From positions 16,988,001 through 17,052,000 of the forward strand of contig NC_086108.1 of NCBI RefSeq assembly GCF_963921235.1: a stretch of DNA of 64,000 bases, in the 5' to 3' direction. The notes beneath the pieces are model-generated. The model worked only from the letters and a program-made list of their open reading frames with translations. It made no database searches and was not told where the DNA came from. This stretch comes from Mobula hypostoma (lineage: Eukaryota). The position numbers and the translations under genes were made by a program. Of this stretch, positions 2,446 through 46,818 are shown one piece after another; position 1 is the stretch's first letter, and the number at the start of each line of letters is the position of its first letter.

Positions 2446-4082
2446 TAAAGTAAAGCTTGAGCATGTAGATATTAAGGAAGAGGTTGTCCTGGAGCTTTTG
2501 GAAAGTATCAAGTTGGATACATCACCGGGACCGGAGGAGATGTACCCCAGGCTACCGTGGGAGGTGAGGGAGGAGATTGCTGAGCCTCTAGCGATGATTT
2601 TTGCATCATCAATGGGGACGGGAGAGGCTCTGGAGGATTGGAGGGTTGTGGATATTGTTCCCTTATTCAAGAAAGGGAGCAGAGATAGCTCAGGAAATTA
2701 TAGACCAGTGAGTCTTACTTCAATGGTTGGTAAGTTGATGGAGAAGATACTGAGAGGCAGGATTTATGAACATTTGGAGAGGCATAATATGATTAGGAAT
2801 AGTCAGCATGGCTTTGTCAAAGGCAGGTGGTGCCTTATGAGCCTAAATGAATTTTTTGAGAATGTGATTAAACACATTGATGAATATAGAGCAGTAGATG
2901 TAGTGTATATGGATTTCAGCAAGGCATTTGATAAGGGACCCCATGCAAGGCTTATTGAGAAAGTAAGGAGGCATGGGATCCAAGAGGACATTGCTTTGTG
3001 GATCCAGAAGTGGCTTGCCTACAGAAGGCAAAGAGTGGTTGTAGATGGATCATATTCTGTCTGGAGGTCGGTGACCAGTGTTGTGCCTCAGAGATCTGTC
3101 CTGGGGCCCCTACTCTTTGAGGTTTTTATAAATGACCTGGATGAGGAAGTGGAGGGATGGGTTAGTAAATTTGCTGATGACACAAATGTTGGAGGTGTTG
3201 TGGATAGTGTGGAGGTCTGTCAGAGGTTACAGCGGGAGATTGATAGGATGCAAAACTGGGCTGAGAAGTGGCAGATGGAGTTCAACCCAGATAAGTGAGG
3301 CGGTTCATTTTGGTAGGTCAAATATGATGGCAGAATATAGTATTAATGGTAAGACTCTTGGCGGTGTGGAGGATCAGAGGAATCTTGGGGTCTGAGTCCA
3401 TAGAACACTCAAAGTGCAGCGCAGGTTGACTCTGTGGTTAAGAAGGCGTACGGTGCATTGGCCTTCATCGATTGTGGGATTGAGTTTAGGAGCTGAGAGG
3501 TAATGTTGCAGCTATATAGGACCCTGGTCAGGCCCCACGTGGAGTACTGTGCTCAGTTCTGGTCGCCTCACTACAGGAAGGATGTGGAAACCATAGAAAG
3601 GATGCAAAGAAGATTTACAAGGATGTTGCCTGGATTGGGGAGCATGCCTTGTGAGAATAGGTTGAGTGAACTCAGCCTTTTCTCCTTGGAGCGATGGAGG
3701 ATGAGAGGTGACCTGATGGAGGTGTATAAGGTGATAAGAGGTATTGATTGTGTGGATAGTCAGAGGCTTATTCCCAGGGCTGAAATTGTTAGCACTAGAG
3801 GGCACAATTTTAAGTTGCTTGGAAGTAGGTACAGAGGAGATATCAGGGGTAAGTTTTTTTTATGCATAGAGTGGTGAGTGCGTGGAATGGGCTGCCGTTG
3901 ATGGTGGTGGAGGCGGATGTGATAGGGTCTTTTAAGAGACTCTTGGATAGGTACATGGAGCTTAGAAAAACAGAGGGCTATGGGTAACCCTAGGTAATTT
4001 CTAAGGTAAGGACATGTTCAGTACAGCTTTGTGGGCCGAAGGGCCTGTATTGTGCTGTAGGTTTTCTATGTTTCTATGTTTT
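2446..4082 (+). mobile_element. 5'-truncated CR1 LINE; ORF2 reverse transcriptase with stops and frameshifts
   Basis: ORF 2411-3298 has GNYRPVSLTS, YMDFSKAFDK, SKFADDT; ORF 3503-3877 has LYRTLVRPHVEYC; tail TTCTATGTTTCTATG. Confidence 0.93.
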
Positions 4083-4659
4083 TAAATGCACACTCTTGAT
4101 CTTTGTCTGCAACATCCCCAGCTTACTCTGCCTCAAAGGTTTCATGGACCACAATTCCACCTGCTGCATTCGCTGCTACAACAGATGACTGTCTTTCCTT
4201 CTTTTTAGATGCCAAAGATCACAAACTTCAATAGCTTTTGGATACTAACACCTATATTGACCTTTCTTCCTCCTCTGCTTTCCTATGACCTATCTCTGCT
4301 CACCGGTTCCATCCATTGCCATGTTTTCACTATCCCCTCTGACATCAAATGAGTGATCCACAGCAGGAGTCCGTAACTCCCTGATCTGCATCTTCTTGCC
4401 TATCTACTACTTCCATCTGTCCTGCTTAATCCACAGGGCTGAATCTGAGGGTCCATTTGCCTTCTGCTTTACTTCAGCATCTCACCCTGTTTAACCTCTC
4501 ATTTTATGGCTCCTAACACTGTTACAGTGAGGCACAAAATAAGCAGCACGCCATTCTTACAAGCACCCTAATGATCATAATGTACAGACGTTCCTTTGTA
4601 GTTACTGCTGTTTCTTGTCTGCATTATTTATTTTTAAGTTATTTCTTTATAAGGTTAAC

Positions 4660-5241
4660 TTATAGGTTGAGTTGGTGGTGAAGAAGGCAAATACAATTTT
4701 AGCAAGGCTGAGGCTCTATAAGGCATTGGTCAGACCACACTTGGAGTATTGTAAGCAATTTTAGCCCCTTGTCTAAGAAAAGGTGCTAGCATTGGAGAAG
4801 GCACAGAGGAAGTTCATGAGAATGATTCTAGGAATGAAAGTGTTAACATATGAGGAGTGTTTGATGGCTCTGGGCCTGTACCTGCTGGAGTTTAGAAGAG
4901 TGACAGTATAAATACTGAAAGGCCTACACTGTGTGGATGTGGAGAGGATGTTTGCTGTAGCAGGGGAGTCTAAGAATAAAGGGACGTACGTTTAGAACAG
5001 AGATGAGAAAGAATTTCTTTAGCCAGAGAGTAGTGAATTGCCACAGATGGCTGTGGAGGCATATTGGGTATATTTAAAGCAGAGGTTGATAGGTTCTTGA
5101 TTAGTCAGAACGTCAAAGGTTATGGGGAAAAGGCAGGAGAATGAGTTTGTGAGGGGTAATAAATCAGCCATGACGGAATGACAGAGGAGACTCGATGGAC
5201 CGAGTGGCCTAATTCTACTCTTATGTTTTATGGTCTTATGA
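4660..5241 (+). mobile_element. CR1 LINE 3' fragment
   Basis: Degenerate ALVRPHLEYC-coding DNA, CR1 3' UTR and TTATG-type tail. Confidence 0.8.
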
Positions 5242-5704
5242 TGTAAGATAATGGGGTATGTAGCTTCTAGTCCTGCAAACAGAGAAGGGAATATGAATGG
5301 TGACATGCAAGCCTTCTTCCTTCTGATTGTAGAAGCTCTGGAAGTGGTTGATTGGTACCCAAAGCTTTGATAGTTTTTTTCTACACCTTGGGTGATGTTT
5401 TAAACAATTGGAAGCTGCTAAATGATATTGAATCTCATTCTGTAATATTCTTTCACCCACAAACATCCTGAGGTGGCTGCTTAAAGTGTGAAGAAAGTAG
5501 TTTGATCTTCCATGGAAACTGAAATGCAATGATAGTTGTGAATATAGACACTTGTTTGTGTTGACCTCTTAATATTGACTTCACCACCTTTGGTACTTCC
5601 ACATCATATATTTTGAAGGACTCCTGCTTCCCTTTAAGCAAAATCATGTTCAAATAATAATATAATAGATAATTTAATCTATTAATCATGTTTCAGTAAT
5701 TAGT

Positions 5705-6875
5705 GCAGTTTTTGAGGAAGTATCTAAGAAGATTGAAGGCAGGGTGGTAGATGTTATACTTAGATACCCCAGTAAGGTATATAACAAGGTATCACATGAT
5801 AGGCTGGTCAAAAATGTTAAGACATACGAAATCCAAGGCAATTTAGCGAATTGGATCCAATATTGGCTTGGTGATAAGAGGCAGAGGTAAAGTGGAAAGT
5901 TCCTTTTCTGATTTAAAGTCTGTAATCAGGGCTGAAGCATAATAATTGATGCTCAGACCTTTGTTTGTGATATAGATGAAAGACTTGGAGGTGAATGTAG
6001 GAGATAAGATTTGTAGGTTGGTTGTCGACACAAACATTGGTAGTGTGCTGGATAGTAAGGAGAGTTGTTTAAGGCTACAGTGGCAGAAAGATCAGATGAA
6101 AAGTTGCAATGAGTATTGGCAGATGAATATATCTTTATATGTATGAGGTGATGCATTTTGGGAAATCAAATAGGGACAGGACATATACATTAAATGGCAT
6201 GGCACTAAGGAATATTGATGAATGGAGAGAGACATTGGGGTTCAAGTACATAGTTCCATGAAAGTAGCAGCACAGGTAGATACAGTGTTAAAGAAGGTAA
6301 TAAGTCAGACCATAGAATATAAAAGTTGGGATGTTATGTTGTCAAATACTTGTTAGGCTGAACTTGGAGTATTATTTATAGTTCTGACTGCCACACTGTA
6401 GGAAGGATATGATTGTGCTGGAGAGAGTACAGGTGAGATTCATTGGGATGTTGCCCAGTTTGAAGCACATAGGTTATGTGGAAACAGTGAATAGGCAGGG
6501 CTTGTTTTTCCTGGAGTGAAGGAGGTCGAGCGGTAACCAGATAGAGGTAAATAAAATTAAGAGAGCAATAGATAAGAGTAGATAGAATATTTTTCCCCAT
6601 ATTTAAAAAGCAAGAGGGCATAGGTTAGAGGTGAGAGGAAGGGGTGCTAAAGGGGATTTGAGGGAAAAGTATTTTACAGAGAAGGTGTTTGATAACTGGA
6701 ATGCACTACCGGTAATACTGGTGGCATCAGATACAATCACTGTGTTTAAGAGACATTTAGGCAATAAATAAAAGGATATGGATTTAATACAGGCAAATGG
6801 GGTTAGTATGGATGGGAAAAATAGATGGACCTGGTGGAATGAAGGGCCTGATTCTATACTGCACAACATTGTGTT
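5705..6875 (+). mobile_element. Highly degenerate CR1 LINE (RT to 3' UTR)
   Basis: Collinear similarity to the CR1 copy at 10050-11280. Confidence 0.75.
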
Positions 6876-6961
6876 TCGAAGTCTCTTCTCGTTAGTCTCA
6901 TTCCATTCCCCGCTCTTATTATTTCCTTAAAATATATATCAAATTGCTAACTGAAGCGACT

Positions 6962-7603
6962 ATTAAATCTGCATTCATCACTGTCTGGGGTGATGAGGTC
7001 CTCTCCACCTCCTGCAAAAAGCACATTTGTTCATGGAAACATGAAAGTTGAGAGGTGACTGGCACAACTGGCATTTATTATGCACTGCATGGAAGTGACA
7101 AGGCTGTTGAAAGACAACCACGTGTATGGAGTCGTGTATAGGGCAGACTAATTAAATGGCATATTTTGGTACGGATATTTGCATTTTAACAGCAAACTGA
7201 CACTTTGTGATGTACCCCCAGTAATACAGTACACCCTTTATTCCAGTGTCATATAGTGTTGGATTTCTACACAGTTACTCTTCCCCTTTATCATATTTAC
7301 AGTACTCTGGCCAACTTATACTGTGACAGACCTGTTCACACCATTATTCAGTAATACGCCTTGTCCATGATTGGTGTGCTCTGATGTAAAGAGACAGCTC
7401 CTTTCTAGCTATTACTGCACCCGTGATAGAGTGACTGGTGTGAACCCAGTGTACTCCAGTGTAAATACACACAGAGACATGGAGCAACTCCCTGAATTAC
7501 ACTCTAAATTACGAAGGTCTCTCACCTTCCACATTTCCCTGAACAACTGCACTTTTTGCAGGAGGTGCAGAGGACCCCAGTGCTGATCGAATGCAGATTT
7601 AAT
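6962..7603. repeat. Degenerate inverted-repeat pair (arms 6962-7054 and 7519-7603)
   Basis: ATTAAATCTGCATTC...CCTCTCCACCTCCTGCAAAAAG...GAGAG matches the reverse complement of 7519-7603. Confidence 0.75.
7200..7480 (+). repeat. Patch of ancient ~43-bp tandem repeat
   Basis: CCAGTGTCATATAGTG, TTATACTGTGACAGACCTGT and TGTACTCCAGTGTAAATACA resemble the 28-30 kb repeat. Confidence 0.55.
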
Positions 7604-7734
7604 TGTCTATGTGCATAATGAACGTAATCTACTGCGCATCTTTCCAAGTAAAATACAGAAATCAGCTTTAAGCAACACACATCAAAGTTGCTGGTGAACG
7701 CAGCAGGCCAGGCAGCATCTATAGGAAGAGGTGC

Positions 7735-7770
7735 AGTCGACGTTTCAGGCCGAGACCCTTCGTCAGGACT
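7735..7770 (-). ncRNA. Minimal type I hammerhead ribozyme motif (PLE-associated)
   Basis: Minus strand reads AGTC-CTGACGA-AGGgtctcggCCT-GAAA-CG-TC-GACT: helix I, CUGANGA core, helix II, GAAA, vestigial helix III, GUC site. Confidence 0.75.
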
Positions 7771-7940
7771 AACTGAAGGAAGAGTGAGTAAGGGATTTGA
7801 AAGCTGGAGGGGGAGGGGGAGATGCAAAATGATAGGAGAAGACAGGAGGGGGAGGGATGGAGCCAAGAGCTGGACATATCATTTTGCATCTCCCCCTCCC
7901 CCTCCAGCTTTCAAATCCCTTACTCACTCTTCCTTCAGTT

Positions 7941-7976
7941 AGTCCTGACGAAGGGTCTCGGCCTGAAATGTCGACT
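7941..7976 (+). ncRNA. Minimal type I hammerhead ribozyme motif, GAAAC>GAAAT variant
   Basis: AGTC-CTGACGA-AGGgtctcggCCT-GAAA-TG-TC-GACT. Confidence 0.65.
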
Positions 7977-9165
7977 GCACCTCTTCCTATAGATGCTGCC
8001 TGGCCTGCTGCGTTCACCAGCAACTTTGATGTGTGTTGCTTGAATTTCCAGCATCTGCAGAATTCCTGTTGTTTGCGTTGAAATCAGCTTTAATATCTTT
8101 TTGACTTCACAAAACCTTTTAACTCCACCAGTTGACTGGGACTGTGAAACATTCTTCTGAAATTCAGTTGCCTGCTGAAATTGAAGGCCTGGTTGTCAGG
8201 AATGCAATTAGTGGGTCCACAGCAGACCCAATTTCAGTACACACTAGTGTCAAGTGTTGTGCTATTGCTCCAACTCTCCCCAATCTTTTGTGCACCTGAC
8301 CCCATCAGTACTGTTTACCAATGGAAAAGTGACAGATTGGTCAACACTGGTGCTATTATTTAGACAGACAGATATATAGATACTTTATTGATCCCAAAGG
8401 AAATTACAGTGTCACAGTAGCATTACAAGTGCACAGATATACAAATATACAAATATTAGAAGAGAAGTAAGAAAGGATAAAACATAAGCTACCACAAACA
8501 GTCTAACAGGAGGGGGTTATTACTTCCCTGGCTATAGGTTGACTCATTATGGAGCCTAATGGCTGAGAGTAAGAATGAACTCATATAGCGGTCTTTGGAG
8601 CATCACAGTTGTCCTAGTCTATTACTAAAAGTGTTCCTCTGTTCATCCAAGGTGGCATGCAGAGGGTGAGAAACACTGTCCAGCATTGCCAGGATTTTCT
8701 ATAAGGTCCTTTGATCTACCACAGCCTCCAGTGTGTTCAGTTTGACTCCTATATCAGAGCCAGCCTTTTAAATCAGTTTATTGAGCCTGTTGGCATCACT
8801 CGTGTTGATGCCATATCCCCAGCACACCAGCACATAGAAGATTGTACTAGTGACAACAGACTGGTAGAACATATGAAGGAGAGGCCTGCATACACCAAAG
8901 GACCTCAGTCTCTTCAGGAAGTAGAGGCGACACTGGTCCTTCTTGTTGGTCCTCTGTGTTGGTGCTCCACTCAGGTCTGTCATCCAAGTGCACCTCCAGG
9001 CCCTTGTAGGTCCTCATCACATCCATGTCCTCACCATCAATAGTAACAGGGAGCAGTGCAGACTTAGTCATCCTAAAGTCCATTACCATCTCCTTTGTCT
9101 TACTGATGCTGAGCTGCAGATGATTCAGCTTACACCATCTGAGAAAATCCTCCACCAGACCTTGT

Positions 9166-9553
9166 AATAGAACATAGAACATAGAATAGTACAGCACAGT
9201 ACAGGCCTTTCGGCCCACAATGTTGTGCTGACCCTCAAACCCTGCCTCCCATATAACCCCCCACCTTAAATTCCTCCATATACCTGTCTAGTAGTCTCTT
9301 AAACTTCACGAGTGTATCTGCCTCCACCACTGACTCAGGCAGTGCATTCCATGCACCGACCACTCTCTGAGTAAAAAAACCTTCCTCTAATATCCCCCTT
9401 GAACTTCCCACCCCTTACCTTAAAGCCCTGTCCTCTTGTATTGAACAGTGGTGCCCTGGGGAAGAGGCACTGGCTATCCACTCTATCTATTCCTCTTAAT
9501 ATCTTGTACACCTCTATCATGTCTCCTCTCATCCTCCTTCTCTCCAAAGAGTA
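9166..9553 (-). mobile_element. Short CR1 3' end inserted in the Rex1-type LINE
   Basis: SLERRRMRGDMIEVYKILRGIDRVD; tail read on + strand as ATAGAACATAGAACATAGAA. Confidence 0.88.
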
Positions 9554-9769
9554 TCCTTCTGTCCTCCCTTTACACACCCAAGAATTGCTGAGTCATCAGA
9601 GAATTTCTCTGTGTTGCATCTAAAATTCGAGGTATATAGGGTAAACCGAAAGAGAGCCAATCCAGCCCCCTGTGGGGCCACAGTGCTGCTTATAGCCATG
9701 TCTGACACACAGCTCTGAAGCCACACAAACTATGGTCTGCCAGTCATTATCCAGGATACAATGGAAGTA

Positions 9770-11280
9770 GGTTGACTATAGGGCTCTGACAGAAATATTT
9801 CAAATGTCATTAGAAACGGGGATGGTGCCGGAGGATTGGCGTATTGCTCATGTGGTTCCAATTGTTTAAAAAAGGGTTCTAAGAGTAAACCTAGCAATTA
9901 TCGGCCTGTGAGTTTAACGTCAGTGGTGGGTAAATTGATGGAAAATATTCTTAGAGATGATATATATAATTATCTGGATAGACAGGGTCTGATAGGAACA
10001 ATCAACATGGATTTGTGCGTGGAAGATCATGTTTGACAAACCTTATTGAATTTTTTGATGAGGTTACTAAGAAAGTTGATGAGGGTAAAGCAGTGGATGT
10101 TGTCTATATGGACTTCAGTAAGGCCTTTGACAAGGTTCCACATGGAAGGTTAGTTAGGAAGGTTCAGTCGTTAGGCATTAATATCGAAGTCGTAAAATGG
10201 ATTCAGCAGTGGCTAGATGGGAGATGCCAGAGAGTAGTGGTGGATAACTGTGTATCAGATTGGAGGACGGTGTGTAGCGGTGTGCCTCAGGGATCTGTAC
10301 TGGGTCCAATGTTGTTTGTCATATATATTAATGATCTGGATGATGGAGTGGTAAATTGCATTGGTAAGTAAGCAGATGATACTAAGATAGGTGGCATTGT
10401 GGATAATGAAGTAGGTTTTCAAAGCTTGCAGAGAGATTTAGGTCAGTTAGAAGAGTGGGCTGAAAGATGGCAGATGGAGTTTAATGCTGAAAAATGTGAG
10501 GTGCTACATTTTGGTAGGACTAATCAAAATAGGACATACATGGTAAATGGTAGGGCATTGAAGAATGCAGTAGAACAGAGGGATCTAGGAATAATGGTGC
10601 ATAGTTCCCTGAAGGTGGAATCTCATGTGGATAGGATGGTGAAGAAAGCTTTTGGTATGCTGGCCTTTATAAATCAGAGCACTGAGTATAGGAGTTGGGA
10701 TGTAATGTTGAAATTGTATAAGGCATTGGTAAGGCCAAATTTGGAGTATTGTGTACAGTTCTGGTCACCGAATTATAAGAAAGGTGTCAATAAAATTGAG
10801 AGAGTACAGAGGAGGTTTACTAAAATGTTGCCTGGGTTTCATCTCCTAAGTTACAGAGAAAGGTTCAACAAGTTAGGTCTTTATTCTTTGGAGCGTAGAA
10901 GGTTGAGGGGGGACTTGATAGAGGTGTTTAAAATTATGAGGGGGATTGATAGAGTTGACGTGGATAGGGTTTTTCCATTGAGAATAGGGGAGATTCAAAC
11001 AAGAGGACATGAGTTGAGAGTTAAAGGGCAAAAGTTTAGGGGTAATACGAGGGGGAACTTCTTTACTCAGAGAGTGGTAGCTGTGTGGAACGAGCTTCTA
11101 GCAGAAATGGTTGAGACAGGTTCGACGTTGTCGTTTAAAGATAAATTGGATAGATATATGGACAGGAAAGGAATGGAGGGTTATGGGCTGAGTGCAGGTC
11201 AGTGGGACTAGGTGAGAGTAAGAGTTTGGCACGGACTAGAAAGGCCGAGATTGCCTGTTTGCATGCTGTAATTGTTATAT
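9770..11280 (+). mobile_element. 5'-truncated CR1 LINE with RT and ORF2 C-terminus
   Basis: ORFs 9836-10036, 10015-10371 (YMDFSKAFDKVPH, GVPQGSVLGP) and 10399-11211; in-frame stop at the YADD tyrosine codon; possible TSD ATGGAAGT at 9761-9768 and 11279-11286. Confidence 0.93.
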
Positions 11281-12169
11281 GGAAGTGCTAACCTACATTG
11301 AGTGGAGTTTCCCCCCAGCAGTGAGGGCTGTATAGTATTGAAGGCACTGACATCAAAAAACATGATCCCGCAGTGCTGCCCTGCTTATCCAAATGGGAGT
11401 AATCTCTGGTCGGCAGGTAGATTACAATATCATCAACTCCAGTATGCTCTTGGAGGCAAACTGGAGGGGATCAAGATCTGATCTGACCAGGGGTCAGAGG
11501 TGAGCCAGGACCAGCCTCTCTAGGGTCTTCATGATGTGTGAGGGCCACTGGACGGTAGTCATTCAAGATTTTTGGTTGGCCCTTTTTGGGTGCTGAGACC
11601 ACACATGATGCTTTCCAGGCTGAGACTTAGACTGAGAACTCCACACGGCTGCTCAGAACACTCCTTCAGGACCTTGGGGTTCAGTGAAGGTGAGTCCATG
11701 ATGACTGGGGAGTTGATGGAAGGTGGGGGTTGGGAGAGGTGAAGATAGCAGTTTGTATGTGGAGATGTGGATGGTAGGTGCAGGGAAGGAAAAGGATGTA
11801 GGCAGTGGGAGCCTGTATTGTTCATCTACATGTTAAACTGGAAGGGTGAGGAGGGAGGAGGGGAGGCATTGGTACTGAGGGAGCTTTGGGTGCCTCAGCA
11901 GCTGGACTGGTGTGCTGAGGGGATTGTGAACAGGAGGGCAATTGTCAAAGCTAATTAGCCCATTCACAGCTGCATTTCAAGGCTGTACTTCTGGGCATTG
12001 AAGTCAGTGATGTTCTTCATGCTTCTCCATACCTCCTGTGTGCTACTCTGCCCAAGCTTCTTCTCCAGCTCTCTCCTGTATTCCTATTTAGCCACCTTGA
12101 TCTTCTCCTTCAGCTCCCTCCGCACGTTTCCATTCCTCCCTGTCTCCTCATCTAAAAGCTCTCTTTAAG

Positions 12170-12385
12170 ATTCTAAAGTAACAAATCTATAGCCAGCAGT
12201 ACTATTATTTGCATACAGTAATGTGTAACAAATCTACAACAAACAGTATTATACAGTGACAGATGTATCTGTAGTCACCAGTCCTTAACATGATTGCATA
12301 CTGTGTTATACTGACATTTTATCCTATCACTGTACCACAGCTTCACAATGACATACCTCTTTCTAACTCCAAATAGAGGTGTGTC
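12170..12385 (+). repeat. Patch of ancient ~43-bp tandem repeat
   Basis: GTAACAAATCTATAGCCAGCAGTACTAT, ATTATACAGTGACAGA, TGTGTTATACTGACA. Confidence 0.6.
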
Positions 12386-12386
12386 A

Positions 12387-12625
12387 TTTATTTATTTAAA
12401 AATACGGGTGGAACAGGCCCTACCAGCCTAACGAGCCGCACCACCACAGGACAATTTACAATGACCAATTAACCTACAACCCAGTACGTCTTTGCAATAT
12501 GGGAGGAAACCAGAGCACTGGAAAAAAAACCCATGTACCCAGGAGAAGAAGTACAAACTTTCTTAGAGGGAATGCCAGAGTTGAACCCAAACTCTGACAC
12601 CCCAAGCTTTAATAGCTACACTACA
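12387..12625 (-). mobile_element. V-SINE-like element
   Basis: GGGAGGAAACCAGAGCAC (reverse complement of the V-domain core); ACAGGACAATTTACAATGACCAATTAACCTA; (TAAA)n tail. Confidence 0.7.
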
Positions 12626-12689
12626 AAGATGTCCGTTTTAAAGCTGTGCTACAGTGGTAGGATCATCTGTGCTGTACAAATTATGTCAA

Positions 12690-12790
12690 TTCATGGAGCA
12701 CAGAAATAGACCCTTCGACACACTACATTCATATGGACCATTTTGTCCATTTATATTATTCTAATTTGCCCACACCGGGACTGTAGCCTT
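12690..12790 (-). mobile_element. Degenerate CR1 3' UTR running into the satellite
   Basis: AGCACAGAAATAGACCCTTCGAC resembles ACAGCACAGTACAGGCCTTTCGGCCC at 9191-9216 (CR1 terminal region, antisense). Confidence 0.55.
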
Positions 12791-15700
12791 CATTTGCCCA
12801 CACCGGGACTGTCGCCTTCATTTGCCCACACCGGGACTGTAGCCTTCACTAGCCCACACTGGGACTGTAGCCTTCACTTGCCCACACTGGGACTGTAGCC
12901 TGCATTTGCCCACACCGGGACTGTCGCCTTCATTTGCCCACACTGGGACTGTCGCCTTCATTTGCCCACACCGGGACTGTAGCCTTCATTTGCCCACACC
13001 GGGACTGTAGCCTTCATTTGCCCACACCGGGACTGCAGCCTTCATTTGCCCACACTGGGACTGCAGCCTTCATTTGCCCACACTGGGACTGTAGCCTTCA
13101 TTTACCCACACTGGGACTCTAGCCTGCATTTGCCCACACCGGGACTGTCGCCTTCATTTGCCCACACTGGGACTGTAGCCTTCATTTGCCCACACCGGGA
13201 CTGCAGCCTTCATTTGCCCACACCGGGACTGTCGCCTTCATTTGCCCACACCGGGACTGTAGCCTGCATTTGCCCACACCGGCACTGCAGCCTTCATTTG
13301 CCCACACCGGGACTGTAGCCTTCATTTTACCACACGGGGACTGTAGCCTGCATTTGCCCACACCGGGACTGTCGCCTTCATTTGCCCACACTGGGACTGT
13401 CGCCTTCATTTGCCCACACCGGGACTGTAGCCTTCATTTGCCCACACCGGGACTGCAGCCTTCATTTGCCCACACCGGGACTGTAGCCTGCATTTGCCCA
13501 CACCGGGACTGTCGCCTTCATTTGCCCACACCGGGACTGTAGCCTTCATTTGCCCACACCGGGACTGTAGCCTTCATTTGCCCACACTGGGACTGGAGCC
13601 TTCATTTGCCCACACCGGGACTGTAGCCTGCATTTGCCCACACCGGGACTGTAGCCTGCATTTGCCCACACCGGGACTGCAACCTTCATTTGCCCACACC
13701 GGGACTGTAGCCTTCATTTGCCCACACTGGGACTGTAGCCTGCATTTGCCCACACCGGGACTGTAGCCTTCATTTGCCCACACTGGGACTGTCGCCTTCA
13801 TTTGCCCACACTGGGACTGCAGCCTTCATTTGCCCACACCGGGACTGTAGCCTGCATTTGCCCACACCGGGACTGTAGCCTGCATTTGCCCACACCGGGA
13901 CTGCAACCTTCATTTGCCCACACCGGGACTGTAGCCTTCATTTGCCCACACTGGGACTGTAGCCTGCATTTGCCCACACCGGGACTGTAGCCTTCATTTG
14001 CCCACACTGGGACTGTAGCCTGCATTTGCCCACACCGGGACTGTAGCCTTCATTTGCCCACACTGGGACTGTAGCCTTCATTTGCCCACACTGGGACTGT
14101 AGCCTGCATTTGCCCACACCGGGACTGTCGCCTTCATTTGCCCACACCGGGACTGTAGCCTTCATTTGCCCACACCGGGACTGTAGCCTTCATTTGCCCA
14201 CACTGGGACTGTAGCCTTCATTTGCCCACACCGGGACTGTAGCCTGCATTTGCCCACACTGGGACTGTAGCCTGCATTTGCCCACACCGGGACTGTAGCC
14301 TTCATTTGCCCACACTGGGACTGTAGCCTGCATTTGCCCACACCGGGACTGTCGCCTTCATTTGCCCACACCGGGACTGTAGCCTTCATTTGCCCACACC
14401 GGGACTGTAGCCTGCATTTGCCCACACCGGGACTGTAGCCTGCATTTGCCCACACCGGGACTGTAGCCTGCATTTGCCCACACCGGGACTGTAGCCTGCA
14501 TTTGCCCACACCGGGACTGCAACCTTCATTTGCCCACACCGGGACTGTAGCCTTCATTTGCCCACACGGGACTGTAGCCTTCATTTGCCCACACGGGACT
14601 GAGCCCCCACACCGGGACTGTAGCCTTCATTTGCCCACACTGGGACTGTAGCCTGCATTTGCCCACACCCGGGACTGTAGCCTTCATTTGCCCACACTGG
14701 GACTGTCGCCTTCATTTGCCCACACTGGGACTGCAGCCTTCATTTGCCCACACCGGGACTGTAGCCTGCATTTGCCCACACCGGGACTGTAGCCTGCATT
14801 TGCCCACACCGGGACTGCAGCCTTCATTTGCCCACACCGGGACTGTAGCCTTCATTTGCCCACACTGGGACTGTAGCCTGCATTTGCCCACACCGGGACT
14901 GTAGCCTTCATTTGCCCACACTGGGACTGTAGCCTGCATTTGCCCACACTGGGACTGCAGCCTTCATTTGCCCACACCGGGACTGTAGCCTTCATTTACC
15001 CACACTGGGACTGTAGCCTGCATTTGCCCACACTGGGACTGTCGCCTTCATTTGCCCACACCGGGACTGTAGCCTTCACTTGCCCACACTGGGACTGCAG
15101 CCTTCACTTGCCCACACCGGGACTGTCGCCTTCATTTGCCCACACCAGGACTGTAGCCTGCATTTGCCCACACTGGGACTGTCGCCTTCACTTGCCCACA
15201 CCGGGACTGTCGCCTTCATTTGCCCACACCGGGACTGTCGCCTTCATTTGCCCACACCGGGACTGTAGCCTTCACTTGCCCACACCGGGACTGCAGCCTT
15301 CATTTGCCCACACTGGGACTGTCGCCTTCATTTGCCCACACTGGGACTGTCGCCTTCATTTGCCCACACCGGGACTGCGGCCTTCATTTGCCCACACCGG
15401 GACTGTCGCCTTCATTTGCCCACACCGGGACTGTAGCCTGCATTTGCCCACACCGGGACTGTAGCCTGCATTTGCCCACACCGGGACTGCAACCTTCATT
15501 TGCCCACACCGGGACTGTAGCCTTCATTTGCCCACACTGGGACTGTAGCCTGCATTTGCCCACACCGGGACTGTAGCCTTCATTTGCCCACACTGGGACT
15601 GTAGCCTTCATTTGCCCACACGGGGACTGTAGCCTGCATTTGCCCACACCGGGACTGTCGCCTTCATTTGCCCACACCGGGACTGTAGCCTTCATTTGCC

Positions 15701-18700
15701 CACACCGGGACTGTAGCCTTCATTTGCCCACACTGGGACTGTAGCCTTCATTTGCCCACACCGGGACTGTAGCCTGCATTTGCCCACACTGGGACTGTAG
15801 CCTGCATTTGCCCACACCGGGACTGTAGCCTTCATTTGCCCACACTGGGACTGTAGCCTGCATTTGCCCACACCGGGACTGTCGCCTTCATTTGCCCACA
15901 CCGGGACTGTAGCCTTCATTTGCCCACACCGGGACTGTAGCCTGCATTTGCCCACACCGGGACTGTAGCCTGCATTTGCCCACACCGGGACTGTAGCCTG
16001 CATTTGCCCACACCGGGACTGTAGCCTGCATTTGCCCACACCGGGACTGCAACCTTCATTTGCCCACACCGGGACTGTAGCCTTCATTTGCCCACACTGG
16101 GACTGTAGCCTGCATTTGCCCACACCGGGACTGTAGCCTTCATTTGCCCACACTGGGACTGTCGCCTTCATTTGCCCACACTGGGACTGCAGCCTTCATT
16201 TGCCCACACCGGGACTGTAGCCTGCATTTGCCCACACCGGGACTGTAGCCTGCATTTGCCCACACCGGGACTGCAACCTTCATTTGCCCACACCGGGACT
16301 GTAGCCTTCATTTGCCCACACTGGGACTGTAGCCTGCATTTGCCCACACCGGGACTGTAGCCTTCATTTGCCCACACTGGGACTGTAGCCTGCATTTGCC
16401 CACACTGGGACTGCAGCCTTCATTTGCCCACACCGGGACTGTAGCCTTCATTTGCCCACACTGGGACTGTAGCCTGCATTTGCCCACACTGGGACTGTCG
16501 CCTTCATTTGCCCACACCGGGACTGTAGCCTTCACTTGCCCACACTGGGACTGCAGCCTTCACTTGCCCACACCGGGACTGTCGCCTTCATTTGCCCACA
16601 CCAGGACTGTAGCCTTCATTTGCCCACACTGGGACTGTAGCCTTCACTTGCCCACACCGGGACTGTAGCCTTCATTTGCCCACACCGGGACTGTAGCCTT
16701 CATTTGCCCACACCGGGACTGTAGCCTTCATTTGCCCACACCGGGACTGCAGCCTTCATTTGCCCACACTGGGACTGTAGCCTTCATTTGCCCACACTGG
16801 GACTGTCGCCTTCATTTGCCCACACCGGGACTGTCGCCTTCATTTGCCCACACCGGGACTGTAGCCTTCATTTGCCCACACTGGGACTGTCGCCTTCATT
16901 TGCCCACACCGGGACTGCGGCCTTCATTTGCCCACACTGGGACTGTAGCCTTCACTTGCCCACACCGGGACTGTCGCCTTCATTTGCCCACACCGGGACT
17001 GCGGCCTTCATTTGCCCACACCGGGACTGTAGCCTTCACTTGCCCACACCGGGACTGTAGCCTTCACTTGCCCACACCGGGACTGTAGCCTTCATTTGCC
17101 CACACTGGGACTGCAGCCTTCATTTGCCCACACCGGGACTGTAGCCTTCATTTGCCCACACCGGGACTGTAGCCTGCATTTGCCCACACTGGGACTGTGG
17201 CCTTCATTTGCCCAAACCGGGACTGTCGCCTTCATTTGCCCACACGGGGACTGTAGCCTTCACTTGCCCACACTGGGACTATAGCCTTCATTTGCCCACA
17301 CCGGGACTGTAGCCTTCATTTGCCCACACCGGGACTGTAGCCTTCATTTGCCCACACCGGGACTGTCGCCTTCATTTGCCCACACCGGGACTGCAGCCTT
17401 CATTTGCCCACACCGGGACTGTAGCCTTCATTTGCCCACACTGGGACTGTAGCCTTCATTTGCCCACACCGGGACTGTAGCCTTCATTTACCCACACTGG
17501 GACTGTCGCCTTCATTTGCCCGAACCGGGACTGTAGCCTTCATTTGCCCACACTGGGACTGTAGCCTTCATTTGCCCACACCGGGACTGTAGCCTTCATT
17601 TGCCCACACCGGGACTGTCGCCTTCATTTGCCCACACTGGGACTGTAGCCTTCATTTGCCCACACTGGGACTGTCGCCTTCATTTGCCCACACCGGGACT
17701 GTAGCCTTCACTTGCCCACACTGGGACTGTAGCCTTCATTTGCCCACACTGGGACTGTAGCCTGCATTTGCCCACACTGGGACTGTAGCCTTCACTTGCC
17801 CACACTGGGACTATAGCCTTCATTTGCCCACACCGGGACTGTAGCCTTCATTTACCCGAACCGGGACTGTAGCCTTCATTTGCCCACACTGGGACTGTAG
17901 CCTTCATTTGCCCACACCGGGACTGTAGCCTTCATTTGCCCACACCGGGACTGTCGCCTTCATTTGCCCACACTGGGACTGTAGCCTTCATTTGCCCACA
18001 CCGGGACTGTAGCCTTCATTTGCCCACACTGGGACTGCAGCCTTCATTTGCCCACACGGGGACTGTAGCCTGCATTTGCCCACACCGGGACTGTAGCCTT
18101 CATTTGCCCACACTGGGACTGTAGCCTGCATTTGCCCACACCGGGACTGCAGCCTGCATTTGCCCACACCGGGACTGTAGCCTTCATTTGCCCACACCGG
18201 GACTGTCGCCTTCATTTGCCCACACTGGGACTGTAGCCTTCATTTGCCCACACCGGGACTGTAGCCTGCATTTGCCCACACCGGGACTGTAGCCTTCATT
18301 TGCCCACACCGGGACTGTAGCCTTCATTTGCCCAAACCGGGACTGTAGCCTGCATTTGCCCACACCGGGACTGTAGCCTTCATTTACCCACACCGGGACT
18401 GTCGCCTTCATTTGCCCAAACCGGGACTGTAGCCTTCATTTGCCCACACCGGGACTGTAGCCTTCATTTGCCCACACCGGGACTGTAGCCTTCATTTGCC
18501 CACACCGGGACTGTAGCCTTCATTTGCCCACACTGGGACTGTAGCCTGCATTTGCCCACACCGGGACTGTAGCCTTCACTTGCCCACACCGGGACTGTAG
18601 CCTTCATTTGCCCACACTGGGACTGTGGCCTTCATTTGCCCACACCGGGACTGTAGCCTTCATTTGCCCACACTGGGACTGTCGCCTTCATTTGCCCACA

Positions 18701-21700
18701 CCGGGACTGCGGCCTTCATTTGCCCACACTGGGACTGTAGCCTTCATTTGCCCACACTGGGACTGTGGCCTTCATTTGCCCACACCGGGACTCTAGCCTT
18801 CATTTGCCCACACCGGGACTGCAGACTTCATTTGCCCACACTGGGACTGTAGCCTTCATTTGCCCACACCGGGACTGTAGCCTTCATTTGCCCACACCGG
18901 GACTGCAGCCTTCATTTGCCCACACTGGGACTGCAGCCTTCATTTGCCCACACTGGGACTGTAGCCTTCATTTGCCCACACCGGGACTGTAGCCTTCATT
19001 TGCCCACACCGGGACTGTAGCCTTCATTTGCCCACACTGGGACTGTAGCCTGCATTTGCCCACACCGGGACTGTAGCCTTTATTTGCCCACACTGGGACT
19101 GTAGCCTGCATTTGCCCACACCGGGACTGTAGCCTTCACTTGTCCACACCGGGACTGTAGCCTTCATTTGCCCACACTGGGACTGTAGCCTGCATTTGCC
19201 CACACCGGGACTGTAGCCTTCATTTGCCCACACCGGGACTGTAGCCTTCATTTGCCCACACGGGGACTGTAGCCTTCATTTGCCCACACGGGGACTGTAG
19301 CCTTCATTTGCCCACACTGGGACTGTAGCCTTCATTTGCCCACACCGGGACTGTAGCCTTCATTTGCCCACAGCGGGACTGTAGCCTTCACTTGCCCACA
19401 CGGGGACTGTAGCCTTCATTTGCCCACACCGGGACTGTAGCCTTCATTTGCCCACACCGGGACTGTAGCCTTCACTTGCCCACACCGGGACTGTCGCCTT
19501 CATTTGCCCACACTGGGACTGTAGCCTTCATTTGCCCACACTGGGACTGTAGCCTTCATTTGCCCACACCGGGACTGTAGCCTTCATTTGCCCACACCGG
19601 GACTGTAGCCTTCACTTGCCCACACCGGGACTGTAGCCTTCATTTGCCCACACTGGGACTGTAGCCTTCATTTGCCCACACCGGGACTGTAGCCTTCATT
19701 TGCCCACACCGGGACTGCAGACTTCATTTGCCCAAACCGGGACTGTCGCCTTCATTTGCCCACACGGGGACTGTAGCCTTCACTTGCCCACACCGGGACT
19801 GTAGCCTTCATTTGCCCACACAGGGACTGTAGCCTGCATTTGCCCACACTGGGACTGTAGCCTGCATTTGCCCACACCGGGACTGTAGCCTTCATTTGCC
19901 CAAACCGGGACTGTCGCCTTCATTTGCCCACACGGGGCCTGTAGCCTTCATTTGTCCACACCGGGACTGCAGCCTTCACTTGCCCACACCGGGACTGTAG
20001 CCTTGATTTGCTCACACCGGGACTGTAGCCTTCACTTGCCCACACCGGGACTGTAGCCTTCATTTGCCCACACTGGGCCTGTAGCCTTCATTTGCCCACA
20101 CCGGGACTGTAGCCTTCATTTGCCCACACGGGGACTGTAGCCTGCATTTGCCCACACTGGGACTGTACCCTGCATTTGCCCACACTGGGACTGTAGCCTT
20201 CATTTGCCCACACTGTGACTGTAGCCTGCATTTGCCCACACTGGGACTGTAGCCTTCATTTGCCCACACCGGGCCTGTAGCCTGCATTTGCCCACACTGG
20301 GACTGTAGCCTTCATTTGCCCACACCGGGACTGTCGCCTTCATTTGCCCACACTGGGACTGTAGCCTTCATTTGCCCACACGGGGACTGTCGCCTTCATT
20401 TGCCCACACTGGGACTGTAGCCTTCATTTGCCCACACTGGGACGGTAGCCTTCACTTGTCCACACCGGGACTGTAGCCTTCATTTACCCACACTGGGACT
20501 GTAGCCTTCATTTGCCCACACTGGGACTGTAGCCTTCATTTGCCCACACTGGGACTGTAGCCTTCATTTGCCCACACCGGGACTGTAGCCTTCATTTGCC
20601 CACACCGGGACTGTAGCCTTCATTTGCCCACACCGGGACTGTAGCCTTCATTTGCCCACACCGGGACTGTAGCCTTCACTTGCCCACACTGGGACTGTAG
20701 CCTTCATTTGCCCACACTGGGACTGTAGCCTTCACTTGCCCACACTGGGACTGTCGCCTTCATTTGCCCACACTGGGACTGTAGCCTTCATTTGCCCACA
20801 CCGGGACTGTAGCCTTCACTTGTCCACACCGGGACTGTAGCCTTCATTTACCCACACTGGGACTGTAGCCTTCATTTGCCCACACTGGGACTGTAGCCTT
20901 CATTTGCCCACACCGGGACTTTAGCCTTCATTTGCCCACACCGGGACTGTAGCCTGCATTTGCCCACACCGGGACTGTAGCCTTCATTTGCCCACACCGG
21001 GACTGTAGCCTGCATTTGCCCACACCGGGACTGTAGCCTTCATTTGCCCACACCGGGACTGTAGCCTTCATTTCCCCACACCGGGACTGTAGCCTTCACT
21101 TGCCCACACTGGGACTGTAGCCTTCATTTGCCCACACTGGGACTGTAGCCTTCACTTGCCCACACTGGGACTGTAGCCTTCATTTGCCCACACTGGGACT
21201 GTAGCCTTCATTTGCCCACACCGGGACTGTAGCCTGCATTTGCCCACACCGGGACTGTAGCCTTCATTTGCCCACACCGGGACTGTCGCCTTCACTTGCC
21301 CACACCGGGACTGCAGCCTTCATTTGCCCACACCGGGACTGCAGCCTTCATTTGCCCACACTGGGACTGTCGCCTTCATTTACCCACACCGGGACTGTAG
21401 CCTTCATTTGCCCACACTGGGACTGTAGCCTTCATTTGCCCACACCGGGACTGTAGCCTTCATTTGCCCACACTGGGACTGTAGCCTTCATTTGCCCACA
21501 CCGGGACTGTAGCCTTCATTTGCCCACACTGGGACTGTAGCCTTCATTTGCCCACACTGGGACTGTAGCCTTCATTTGCCCACACCGGGACTGTAGCCTT
21601 CATTTGCCCACACCGGGACTGTCGCCTTCATTTGCCCACACCGGGACTGTAGCCTGCATTTGCCCACACCGGGACTGTAGCCTTCACTTGCCCACACTGG

Positions 21701-24536
21701 GACTGTGGCCTTCATTTGCCCACACTGGGACTGTAGCCTTCACTTGCCCACACCGGGACTGTAGCCTTCATTTGCCCACACTGGGACTGTAGCCTTCACT
21801 TGCCCACACCGGGACTGTAGCCTTCATTTGCCCACACCGGGACTGTCGCCTTCATTTGCCCACACCGGGCCTGTAGCCTTCACTTGCCCACACCGGGACT
21901 GTAGCCTTCATTTGCCCACACCGGGACTGTGGCCTGCATTTGCCCACACCGGGCCTGTAGCCTTCACTTGCCCACACCGGGCCTGTAGCCTTCACTTGCC
22001 CACACCGGGACTGTGGCCTGCATTTGCCCACACCGGGACTGTAGCCTTCATTTGCCCACACCGGGCCTGTAGCCTTCACTTGCCCACACCGGGACTGTAG
22101 CCTTCATTTGCCCACACCGGGACTGTCGCCTTCATTTGCCCACACCGGGACTGTCGCCTTCACTTGCCCACACCTGGACTGCAGACTTCATTTGCCCAAA
22201 CCGGGACTGTAGCCTTCATTTGCCCACACCGGGACTGTAGCCTTCATTTGCCCACACGGGGACTGTAGCCTTCATTTGCCCACACCGGGACTGTAGCCTT
22301 CATTTGCCCACACCGGGACTGTAGCCTTCATTTGCCCACACTGGGACTGTAGCCTTCATTTGCCCACACTGGGACTGTAGCCTTCATTTGCCCACACTGG
22401 GACTGTCGCCTTCATTTGCCCACACTGGGACTGTAGCCTTCATTTGCCCACACCGGGACTGTCGCCTTCATTTGCCCACACCGGGACTGCAGCCTTCATT
22501 TGCCCACACTGGGACTGTAGCCTTCATTTGCCCACACGGGGACTGTCGCCTTCATTTGCCCACACTGGGACTGTCGCCTTCATTTGCCCACACCGGGACT
22601 GTAGCCTTCACTTGCCCACACCGGGACTGCAGCCTTCATTTGCCCACACGGGGACTGTAGCCTTCATTTGCCCACACCGGGACTGTAGCCTTCATTTGCC
22701 CACACCGGGACTGCAGCCTTCATTTGCCCACACGGGGACTGTAGCCTTCATTTGCCCACACGGGGACTGTAGCCTTCATTTGCCCACACTAGGACTGTAG
22801 CCTGCATTTGCCCACACCGGGACTGCCGCCTTCACTTGCCCACACTGGGACTGTAGCCTTCATTTGCCCACACCGGGACTGTAGCCTTCATTTGCCCACA
22901 CCGGGACTGCAGCCTTCATTTGCCCACACTGGGACTGTAGCCTTCATTTGCCCACACGGGGACTGTCGTCTTCATTTGCCCACACTGGGACTGTCGCCTT
23001 CATTTGCCCACACCGGGACTGTAGCCTTCACTTGCCCACACCGGGACTGCAGCCTTCATTTGCCCACACGGGGACTGTAGCCTTCATTTGCCCACACCGG
23101 GACTGTAGCCTTCATTTGCCCACACCGGGACTGCAGCCTTCATTTGCCCACACGGGGACTGTAGCCTGCATTTGCCCACACCGGGACTGCAGCCTTCACT
23201 TGTCCACACCGGGACTGTAGCCTTCACTTGCCCACACCGGGACTGTAGCCTTCATTTGCCCACACCGGGACTGTAGCCTTCATTTGCCCACACGGGGACT
23301 GTAGCCTTCATTTGCCCACACTAGGACTGCAGCCTTCACTTGTCCACACCGGGACTGTAGCCTTCACTTGCCCACACCGGGACTGTAGCCTTCAATAGCC
23401 CACACCGGGCCTGTAGCCTTCACTTGTCCACACCGGGACTGTAGCCTTCACTTGTCCACACCGGGACTGTAGCCTTCATTTGCCCACACCGGGACTGTAG
23501 CCTTCATTTGCCCACACCGGGACTGCAGCCTTCATTTGCCCACACCGGGACTGTAGCCTTCATTTGCCCACACCGGGACTGTAGCCTTCACTTGCCCACA
23601 CCGGGACTGTAGCCTTCACTTGCCCACACCGGGACTGTAGCCTTCATTTGCCCACACCGGGCCTGTAGCCTTCACTTGTCCACACCGGGACTGTAGCCTT
23701 CATTTGCCCACACCGGGACTGTAGCCTTCATTTGCCCACACCGGGACTGCAGCCTTCACTTGCCCACACTGGGACTGTAGCCTTCATTTACCCACACCGG
23801 GACTGCAGCCTTCATTTACCCACACCGGGACTGTAGCCTTCATTTGCCCACACTAGGACTGTAGCCTTCACTTGTCCACACCGGGACTGTAGCCTTCACT
23901 TGCCCACACCGGGACTGCAGCCTTCATTTGCCCACACGGGGACTGTAGCCTTCATTTGCCCACACCGGGACTGTAGCCTTCATTTGCCCACACCGGGACT
24001 GTAGCCTTCACTTGCCCACACCGGGACTGTAGCCTTCATTTGCCCACACCGGGACTGTAGCCTTCATTTGCCCACACCGGGACTGTAGCCTTCACTTGCC
24101 CACACCGGGACTGTAGCCTTCATTTGCCCACACCGGGACTGTAGCCTTCATTTGCCCACACCGGGACTGTCGCCTGCATTTGCCCACACCGGGACTGTAG
24201 CCTTCACTTGTCCACACCGGGACTGTAGCCTTCACTTGCCCACACCGGGACTGTAGCCTTCACTTGTCCACACCGGGACTGTAGCCTTCACTTGTCCACA
24301 CCGGGACTGTAGCCTTCATTTGCCCACACCGGGACTGTAGCCTTCATTTGCCCACACCGGGCCTGTAGCCTTCACTTGCCCACACCGGGCCTGTAGCCTT
24401 CATTTGCCCACACCGGGACTGTCGCCTTCACTTGCCCACACCGGGACTGTAGCCTTCACTTGCCCACACCGGGACTGTAGCCTTCATTTGCCCACACCGG
24501 GCCTGTAGCCTTCATTTGCCCACACCGGGACTGTAC
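12764..24536. repeat. 28-bp tandem satellite, consensus CATTTGCCCACACCGGGACTGTAGCCTT, about 420 units
   Basis: Contiguous head-to-tail units visible throughout; ~11.8 kb / 28 bp; few substitutions per unit. Confidence 0.99.
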
Positions 24537-24569
24537 AGCCCTGGGTTTTTCTATTCAATAACATTTGTA

Positions 24570-25440
24570 CTTGTTGGTAATCATCAACGAGAAGGATTTG
24601 GAGACTGAAGATTAAGGCAAGAGTATGCTGATATTCTGGATCATAATTCCATCAGGAAGGGGTAGTTTTAACAAAGCTGGACTAAATTATGGTGAATAAG
24701 TCTCCAGGGCCTAGTTCGATCTAGCTCAAGATACTAAGGAAAGCAAGGGAGGAAATTTCTGGGGCTCTGATAGGGACTTTTACTTTTTTGTTAGCCATGA
24801 GTGAGATTCATGCAGAATGGAGGATATCTGCAGTCTTTCTTTTGAAAAAGGCAGTAGGGAAAAATCTGAAAACTACTTGTCAGTGATCCTTAAATCAGCA
24901 ATAGGGAAGTTGATGGATAAGATTTTGTGAGACACAATGTTTGTTCTCTTACAGGGACAGGGATTATTCAGGAATCAGCATAGTTTTGTACAGGAGGGTT
25001 CATGCCTCACAAACGCAATTGCATTTTTTTTGAGAAGGTAACAAAGAAAAATTGATGAAGGAAATGCCGCAGGGATGTGGACTTGAGTAAGGTTTTTGAC
25101 AAGGTCCAGCATGGTAGGCTGGTTCAAATGGTTAAAGTATAATGTATACAAGGCATGTTGTCAAAGTAGATCCAGAGCTCGTTTTTGCTAGGTTGCATGG
25201 GGTAATAGTGGATGAGTGCTTTTCTGACTGTAACAGATGCCGTACTGCAGGGATCTATGCTGGGATTTAGGTTGTTTGTAATATATATAAATGACCTGGG
25301 TGGAATGATCACATGTTGCATGAAATTTGATGGAGTTATAAATAATGAAGAAAATTGACAAAGGATACAGCAGGACGCAGGTTAGCTGAAAAGTTACGTG
25401 CGATGGTAGCAGATGGAATTGAATTCAAACAAATGTGAGA
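24570..25440 (+). mobile_element. Highly degenerate CR1 ORF2 fragment
   Basis: GACTTGAGTAAGGTTTTTGACAAGGTC (DxSKxFDKV), CAGGGATCTATGCTGGG, TATATAAATGACCTGG. Confidence 0.7.
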
Positions 25441-25689
25441 TCTTAAAATGGTGCTGATAAGTAGCAACCCTTTGTATGCAGCTCTGAAGGGAATCATCAT
25501 ATAATCCCTTTTCGAATTATGATGGCTGAAATCCACAGTCAAGGCCATGCATACTGCTGTAAGCAACATCACTTAAAGATGTTTTAAACAATTTACTGAT
25601 CTTCAAAATCAGCGGTCCCCAGGCAGCAGTCTTGGGTAGTGAGTACAATTCACCTTTAAGAAAATGGAAGCAGGGAAGGTATATTGGGC

Positions 25690-27151: not shown

Positions 27152-27490
27152 CTGGTGGGGTAGATAATCAGAGTGTTTTTCTTAGGTCATGGAGTTTGGA
27201 ACAGAGGCCAAAGATTTTAGGTGAGAGTAGAAAAATTTTAAAGGTACCTGAGGGGTACAATTTTCACATGGAGAGTGGTGGTTATCTGAAACAAGCTGCC
27301 AGAAGAATTAACAGTGGCTGATATGATAACATCATTTAGGAGCACATTTAAAGACAGCGTGCTTAAGATAGGAAGGATATAAAGTGATAAGGGCCAATTG
27401 CGGGTATATGGGATCAGTGTAGATAGGCATCATGGTTGGCATGGACGATGTGCACCAAAAGAGCTGCTTTGTTTACTATAACACTACATA
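27152..27490 (+). mobile_element. Degenerate CR1 3' fragment
   Basis: Collinear similarity to CR1 3' ends elsewhere in the window. Confidence 0.6.
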
Positions 27491-46100: not shown

Positions 46101-46818
46101 AAATCCTAAAGTCAACCCATAACAAGGAGGATTGACAATAGGCGCGACCCACAGACCCGGAGAGGAAACAGAACATACAAAAGATACCGGGGAAAAGGAC
46201 GTAACCAATACTTCAATAATGTATATAGCCCAAAGAGAAACAAACTAAAACGTGAAGCCCCTCCCACCGCCCCCCACCCCAGGACCCCAAGGCGAAATCT
46301 AAAGCAGACCCGCCAGAAAGAAGCAAGCGCTAAAACTACCCCCATGACTTCCGGTATACGCTCCCTAAAAAAAAGGTATAAATATGAAAAGGATCAGCTA
46401 ATTGTAAAACAGTAAAAAATAAGTAAAAAAAAGTTAACTCAATTAAAATACACACAGAACAGAACAAAAGCCGGAAAGTATATATTAAAAAAAACCACAA
46501 TAAACCTCAAACTCATGAATAGACACAGCAACAAAAAAAATAGGATTATTAACATAAAATGATTATAAAAAGCAAAACAGAATAAAATTTAAAAAAAACT
46601 ACAAAATTTAAGGCCGCACAGGAAATACGTAAGATGACAAAAGGGAAGTAACCACCCAGAATCCCCTGGGAAAAGAAAGAAATGACGCAGTTAAAAAGAA
46701 AGTTTAGCAGCCATATTAAGAAATCGAAAGTAAACTTTTCTGCCCAAATAGGGCACAGAAAAGTTAAAACCAACCAATTCACAGCCTCCGATCAACGGAG
46801 AAAATTAAAAAAAGGCAA

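Follow-up and report, generated by a model that had tools for sequence, protein, structure and literature searches.

A 28-bp minisatellite of Mobula hypostoma that was probably born in place from a decayed CR1 3' end

Tandem repeats derived from transposable elements (TEs), including repeats of CR1 origin, have already been published, and the locus described here represents a known birth route and no new mechanism. It lies in a 64,000-nucleotide stretch of the Mobula hypostoma genome (contig NC_086108.1, positions 16,988,001 to 17,052,000 of the forward strand), hereafter the window, to which all coordinates refer, and it consists of a long array of 28-bp units adjoining what appears to be the remnant of the 3' end of a CR1 long interspersed nuclear element (LINE). 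Several described systems are close to it, and these are compared below on the basis of the accessible parts of the cited papers. The chicken HinfI (SCR1) tandem repeat holds a CR1 3' untranslated region (UTR) and part of open reading frame 2 (ORF2) (Li and Leung 2006, as cited in PMC9659126 and PMC6947457). Both tandem repeats come from the same CR1 end, but the chicken repeat embeds the CR1 piece, whereas here the unit appears to be 28 bases of ORF2 and the UTR is present once, in the flank outside the array. In humans, TE-derived minisatellites constitute 23% of all minisatellites and are mostly single-locus (5,747 of 5,932 clusters) (Ahmed and Liang 2012, PMC3389668). The ray array resembles these in having a unit of more than 20 bp from an old TE, local duplication and apparently fewer units in a relative (in outgroups, for the human arrays), and differs from them in its donor (CR1), its host (a cartilaginous fish) and its size, as human Alu-derived arrays average 2-3 units and 421 units lie far into the tail (PMC3389668).

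The sSats of squamates (Vassetzky et al. 2023, PMC10702118) are also parts of retroposons amplified in tandem, with a few to hundreds of units and greater uniformity in long arrays; unlike the present array, however, which has a LINE donor, a 28-base unit and apparently one locus, they have short interspersed nuclear element (SINE) donors, units of 70-290 bases and tens to thousands of loci. With neither a SINE donor nor a unit of that size, the array behaves like an sSat without being one. Finally, the LINE-1-derived common cetacean satellite and PROsat (both tabulated in PMC9659126) likewise arose from a LINE 3' part or ORF2, but their donors are L1 elements and they are established families, whereas here one array is still joined to its apparent donor. 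The literature search, with most subscription papers, all supplements and the repeat libraries outside its reach, revealed no report of a CR1-derived array from a shark or ray.

We consider it most likely that the array is a single-locus minisatellite with no sign of function, which was born in place by slippage from a CR1 3' relic and was lengthened recently by block duplication. The features on which this reading is based are as follows:

12690..12755, minus strand: apparent decayed CR1 3' UTR that ends close to the conserved 3' motif; a repeat tail was not recognised
12756..12763, minus strand: octamer outside the repeat, occupying the place of the CR1 W-D-stop octamer and reading (K)-L-E-stop
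12764..12791, minus strand: junction unit, whose register is that of the final ORF2 codons (EGYSPGVGK)
12764..24535, minus strand: tandem array of about 421 units of 28 bp (11.8 kb), from Tandem Repeats Finder (TRF) and unit parsing

Most claims of a TE-to-satellite transition rest solely on the likeness of the unit; here the putative donor remainder is attached to the array in register, with its stop in place. The roughly 420 copies counted in a first-pass annotation, made from the sequence alone, were recovered by TRF as a single array call (period 28, 420.8 copies, 93% matches). The minus-strand translation of 12756-12791 is EGYSPGVGKLE-stop, and two CR1 ends of the window read EGYGPCAGQWD-stop and EGYGLSAGQWD-stop; the stop of the former sits where CR1 ORF2 stops. 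The reading EGYSPGVGK had been proposed in the first-pass annotation and holds, now with the stop added, and the 28-mer given there needs one preceding G to complete the E codon. The octamer is located 39 bases from the conserved 3' motif, and the identical spacing is found in an old CR1 copy at 27382-27490. Compared with that copy without gaps, the relic is identical at 49 of 102 positions (30 of the 53 differences are transitions), and the junction unit (15/28) and the flank (34/74) are decayed to a similar degree. The 17 of 28 identities previously aligned by hand between the unit and the ORF2 end of the CR1 stopping at 40382 were reproduced, four ends of the same type gave 15, 15, 15 and 16 of 28, and transitions make up 43 of the 62 mismatches to the five ends.

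The register was tested with a 28-column matrix built from the 28 bases preceding the W-D-stop octamer in five CR1 ends of the same 3' type; as these ends were picked after inspection of the alignment, the test was rerun with other sets of ends. With the five-end matrix, the junction phase scored 14.4 bits, the next of the 28 phases -2.5 and the reverse strand at most -6.0, and the score of the unit was reached by 6 of 20,000 shuffles, each taken at its own best of 28 phases. Only 4 of 102,244 28-mers of the window reach this score, and three of them occupy the same position in CR1 ends outside the matrix. Left-out true ends score 12.2-29.7 on the matrix, so the unit scores like the oldest true ends. 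A matrix of all 11 ends that reach the end of ORF2 again ranked the junction phase first (7 of 5,000 shuffles), and this phase was the best of 28 in all four matrices tried. These results bear on the possibility that an unrelated G-rich minisatellite adjoins a CR1 3' UTR relic and is like the end of ORF2 by coincidence alone. Such a coincidence could be favoured by the modest match (15-17 of 28 letters), by the choice of the five ends after viewing the alignment and by the abundance of CR1-type ORF2 homology, which spans about 17 kb of the window; the correct strand, the phase, the shuffle counts and the stop codon in register all speak against it, and we regard it as quite improbable.

With nhmmer profiles that contained no sequence from 12300-25000, one full unit and the flank were matched as a single piece (E 0.018, 0.0058 and 0.0032 with 7, 8 and 5 ends, respectively), the match reaching 3 bases into the following unit, and the reversed window gave no match at E<=5. 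An overlap of the unit with the TE by at least one period, as used by Ahmed and Liang, is thus present here. With the array collapsed to one unit, as had been suggested in the first-pass annotation, and the first unit retained, CR1 was matched with E 0.0009 and 0.003. The sequence comparisons therefore support the claim that the unit is the segment expected beside the 3' UTR, on the expected strand and in the expected phase, a one-sided support that comes from the left junction.

The left flank appears to be a real but badly decayed CR1 relic. On the minus strand, 12690-12763 gave summed local scores against 12 CR1 3' ends of z 5.0 (0 of 300 dinucleotide shuffles), with a weak likeness to each end taken singly (for 6 of the 12 ends, at most 11 of 300 shuffles reached the score). 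The antisense CR1 3' UTR earlier placed at 12690-12775 is thereby upheld for 12690-12763, and 12764-12775 already belongs to unit 1. In read-run contig mapping, bins 12675-12752 attract extra contigs of other copies in three deep runs (about 3-4 times single-copy depth), and unique DNA at 12246-12362 attracts none. CR1 3' ends carry a short tandem-repeat tail and a 3' stem-loop. Shuffled sequences fold just as well as the relic (z -0.3, versus -2.66 for a young CR1 copy), and the lack of both tail and fold in it would be a consequence of decay.

The state of the locus in relatives was assessed with read runs, nine of 12 listed runs containing the stretch: these come from organism A (0.77-0.91 of words), organism B (0.39-0.46, one sample) and organism C (0.08), and the contigs of four runs were compared over 11700-12850. 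The two long contigs of A match the window letter for letter and may represent its source. B differs from the window at 11 of 654 aligned letters (1.7%) and has 14 extra letters within the stretch 12490-12675, upstream of 12675. A contig of B (12490-12807) passes gap-free over the junction and into the second unit, colinear with the window and with the same junction and phase; it carries a private one-letter change at 12777, in the junction unit, and ends 31 letters from it, while the A contig ends 30 letters after the last flank base. Both contigs thus break off at the onset of repeated 31-letter words, so that B, too, would have an array, of at least about 3 units. The check on relatives proposed earlier, a search for a single-unit state at the orthologous locus, thus revealed the same junction and an apparently short array in B, and no single unit. 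C covers the flank at 12150-12303, with three changes in common with B; there is no cover over 12636-12850 in this low-cover run, which gives no evidence either way.

Unit-bin depth in A was 3,428-8,883 against 5.3-8.5 in the flanks, and in B 39-118 against 7, with 38-82 against 31-36 in a second B run. A simple graph model of the window array, which ignores contig cleaning and a second haplotype, predicts 142,742 depth-bases per single-copy depth, and A shows 75,605-120,345, so that no second large array is needed in A. In B, about 1,000 depth-bases (as from 10-15 units) and about 200 (as from 6-8 units; 84% of the run was read) were obtained, counting all B units wherever they are located, which under the model suggests a short array of roughly 7-15 units. 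An assembly artefact was set aside in kind, the unit depth of A being about 1,000 times its flank depth, although one run, X1, may itself be what the window was derived from. With a close relative apparently in an early, short state, birth and growth may be ordered at one locus and the rate of growth measured.

The composition of the array is consistent with recent growth. Parsing yielded 420 segments, 416 of them regular; the regular units diverge by 4.1% from the consensus, and among the 35 single-letter variants in the array five account for 76% of all unit differences. Rare variants make up 0.15-0.28% of letters (0.28% for those seen at most five times), which is less than the approximately 0.8% that the flank difference between A and B implies for each lineage. 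Variants are regional: one occurs 32, 20, 12 and 6 times in successive quarters of the array, another 6, 10, 14 and 32 times. Exact repetition extends over blocks of 17 and 15 units, compared with no more than 6 in 100 shuffles of the unit order. Such regional variants and block copies would be the trace of local slippage and unequal exchange; together with the short array of B, as judged by rough depth, they also correspond to the local expansion with fewer units in relatives required by Ahmed and Liang. A higher-order repeat was considered, and the pattern, with a weak lag-8 excess alone, is better described by two block duplications.

The same origin with the reverse direction of change, i.e. 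an old long array that was homogenised by turnover and was mostly lost in B, would explain why units stand 4.1% from the consensus when the flanks of A and B differ by 1.7%, and homogenisation also reduces rare variants; moreover, no outgroup has cover over the array. As five common variants make up most of the unit difference, rare variants are so scarce and exact copies of 15-17 units imply recent growth, a loss in B seems very improbable. Two further features of the array, and two of its right side, are:

14556..14685, no strand: sole irregular patch in the array, with segments of 27, 46 and 29 bases
24514..24544, minus strand: far-edge unit, 22 bases in phase and then about 8 bases, read from the sequence
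24545..24658, no strand: right flank stretch with weak likeness to minus-strand CR1 ends
24659..25451, plus strand: old CR1 ORF2 fragment (tblastn) on the opposite strand, not a continuation of the donor

The last 8 or so bases of the far-edge unit, an extension judged by eye, may represent the degenerate start of a unit into which 2 bases were inserted. The CpG observed/expected ratio is 0.38 inside the array and 0.30 outside, which says little on heterochromatic location.

Several results weigh against birth in place from CR1. Aligned by itself and without an anchor, the unit scores no better than chance (44 of 300 shuffles are as good), and in a matrix of the six unused, more distant ends the junction phase ranks first but with 467 of 5,000 shuffles (1,987 of 5,000 for three of these ends); both facts would suit an accidental likeness. 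The left flank by itself is not significant by nhmmer (E 0.36 and 1.7), and an ungapped, flank-only register test gave no signal (2,417 and 436 of 5,000 shuffles), this test being flawed, as UTR lengths differ and 4 of 5 true ends were mis-registered. A CR1 continuation to the right of the array was looked for by alignments and tblastn, and none was shown: 24536-24600 is at best faintly like upstream CR1 on the minus strand (7 of 300 shuffles), the stretch 24545-24658 alone is not significant against plus-strand ORF2 (224 and 174 of 1,000 shuffles), and collapsing the array to its far-edge unit, in place of the first, weakens the nhmmer match (E 0.12, 0.07 and 0.048). The near-direct repeats in CR1 ends are, by eye, 29 and not 28 bases apart, and the far-edge unit lacks one. 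The single-unit state is seen in neither A nor B (C is without cover over the array), and contig depth is no copy number, the depth estimates being orders of magnitude.

The non-CR1 right edge would also be expected if the unit, although derived from CR1, had been born at another CR1 end and brought here by ectopic gene conversion or reinsertion, with pairing to a resident 3' relic, for which the approximately 12 CR1 3' ends in the window offer plentiful homologous targets. Such an import is improbable, since the depth in A can be explained without a second large array, B shares the junction and apparently has few units, and the junction unit and the flank are similarly decayed relative to the old copy at 27382. 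Birth in place from CR1, as put forward in the first-pass annotation, is accordingly favoured by the register, the junction in B and the depth, and its term "satellite" overstates what seems to be a single-locus minisatellite of 11.8 kb.

Given that the in-register join exists on the left side only, the donor would have been about 100-110 bases long, and the amplified unit is probably the 5' end of the donor relic. A relic of just ~100 bases could alternatively be a SINE whose tail came from a CR1 3' end, as SINE tails commonly derive from partner LINEs (PMC10702118, in its accessible text). The relic, however, holds ORF2 codons and a stop, and on the right side no sequence could be recognised as a SINE body, which makes a SINE donor hardly credible. 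A twin-priming inversion, which would have placed the minus 3' piece head-to-head with the plus ORF2 piece, was considered and put aside, as the plus piece stops short of the relic start by about 220 codons.

The following course of events would account for the locus. A short, 5'-truncated CR1 copy (the last ORF2 codons and the 3' UTR) would have been inserted in antisense long ago and have decayed; the 5'-most 28 bases of the relic would then have been tandemly duplicated, probably by replication slippage, possibly aided by the short near-direct repeats that flank this segment in CR1 ends. Before A and B split, a few variant units would already have formed a short array, and in the lineage of the window this array would have grown to ~421 units by slippage and unequal exchange, with multi-unit blocks being copied and few variants spreading locally, to give a neutral, single-locus and probably length-polymorphic minisatellite. 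The birth of minisatellites between direct repeats of 5-20 bases has been described (Haber and Louis, as cited), and flanking short direct repeats explain just 300 of 7,276 human cases, according to the accessible text of PMC3389668. A slippage start between short repeats is plausible. Rfam gave no match, and the two reading frames within the array that were scanned had Pfam matches below threshold only; with no notable fold either, no function is indicated. Exact unit patterns had no matches in viral contigs, metagenome contigs or 85 fetched loci, a result that is uninformative for an animal repeat.

A more general, tentative and rather doubtful idea is that the ORF2-stop segment of CR1 is a recurrent array seed in cartilaginous fishes, its near-direct repeats being prone to slippage and giving rise repeatedly to independent arrays with different units, and that this locus would have been caught in 30- to 60-fold growth within 1.7% divergence, before spread to other loci. 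In another CR1 subfamily, the same position of the ORF2 end (59681-59717) holds 1.9 copies of a 19-mer according to TRF; this built-in near-repeat at a CR1 end bears on the slippage-hotspot idea. In practical terms, the array is a likely hypervariable marker for the ray and a tidy case study.

CR1-like sequences are abundant around the array. LINEs of the L2/CR1/Rex group constitute 12.5-22% of batoid genomes, as stated in the accessible part of a preprint (bioRxiv 10.64898/2026.10.27.761883). In the window, 17,464 bases are matched by 8 CR1 proteins in tblastn, part of which represents other LINE clades, and 12 CR1 3' ends were available besides the relic, 11 in the window and one in contig L083. 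The reference ORF2 at 39117-40382 carries RVT_1, and the relic is without any reverse transcriptase part. Among the matches listed (120 of 3,948), the closest named relative of this ORF2 is from Hypanus sabinus (88%), and relatives occur in rays, birds and turtles; we take this ORF2 and its relatives to belong to the CR1 clade, a name that the source records do not write. Relatives of the ORF2 end were found at 80 metagenome loci (33-52% identity, none ray-like), in no viral contigs and at 5 sites in prokaryote genomes, one of which is L083, the ray-like CR1 end used here; the relatives other than L083 are distant. The latter is a 547-base contig (L083:1-547) of an Aeromonas cavernicola assembly and is most likely contamination, and the same applies to CR1 proteins that carry the labels Proteus and Klebsiella. 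At two sites, pieces of CR1 from different subfamilies stand head-to-head, namely minus 9253-9780 against plus 9783-11208 (within 9165-11285) and the donor relic facing the plus-strand fragment that starts at 24659 (within 24545-25451).

One more repeat adjoins the relic on its outer side:

12400..12635, minus strand: very high-copy dispersed repeat adjoining the relic (self-matches; read depth)

Its summed depth is 615,039 at 12441-12479, against 8.5 in unique DNA, and it is presumably an HE1/V-SINE-type element. Inverted arms of 35 bases (12314-12348 and 12636-12670, 80% complementary) enclose this SINE-like element, and further short inverted repeats are present at 12347-12388 and 12666-12704, the latter mirroring the CR1 3' motif. 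Elsewhere in the window, 42324-47739 (minus strand) holds an L1-type element with an open ORF1 of 306 amino acids (Transposase_22) and an open ORF2 of 1,306 amino acids (endonuclease, reverse transcriptase and zf-RVT), which looks intact and young; neither a target-site duplication nor a tail was established for it. A young repeat, with copies that are 91-96% identical, is found at 7667-8079, 52361-53033, 59181-59349 and 60866-61494, in palindromic or inverted pairs (e.g. 7667-7876 and 7877-8079).

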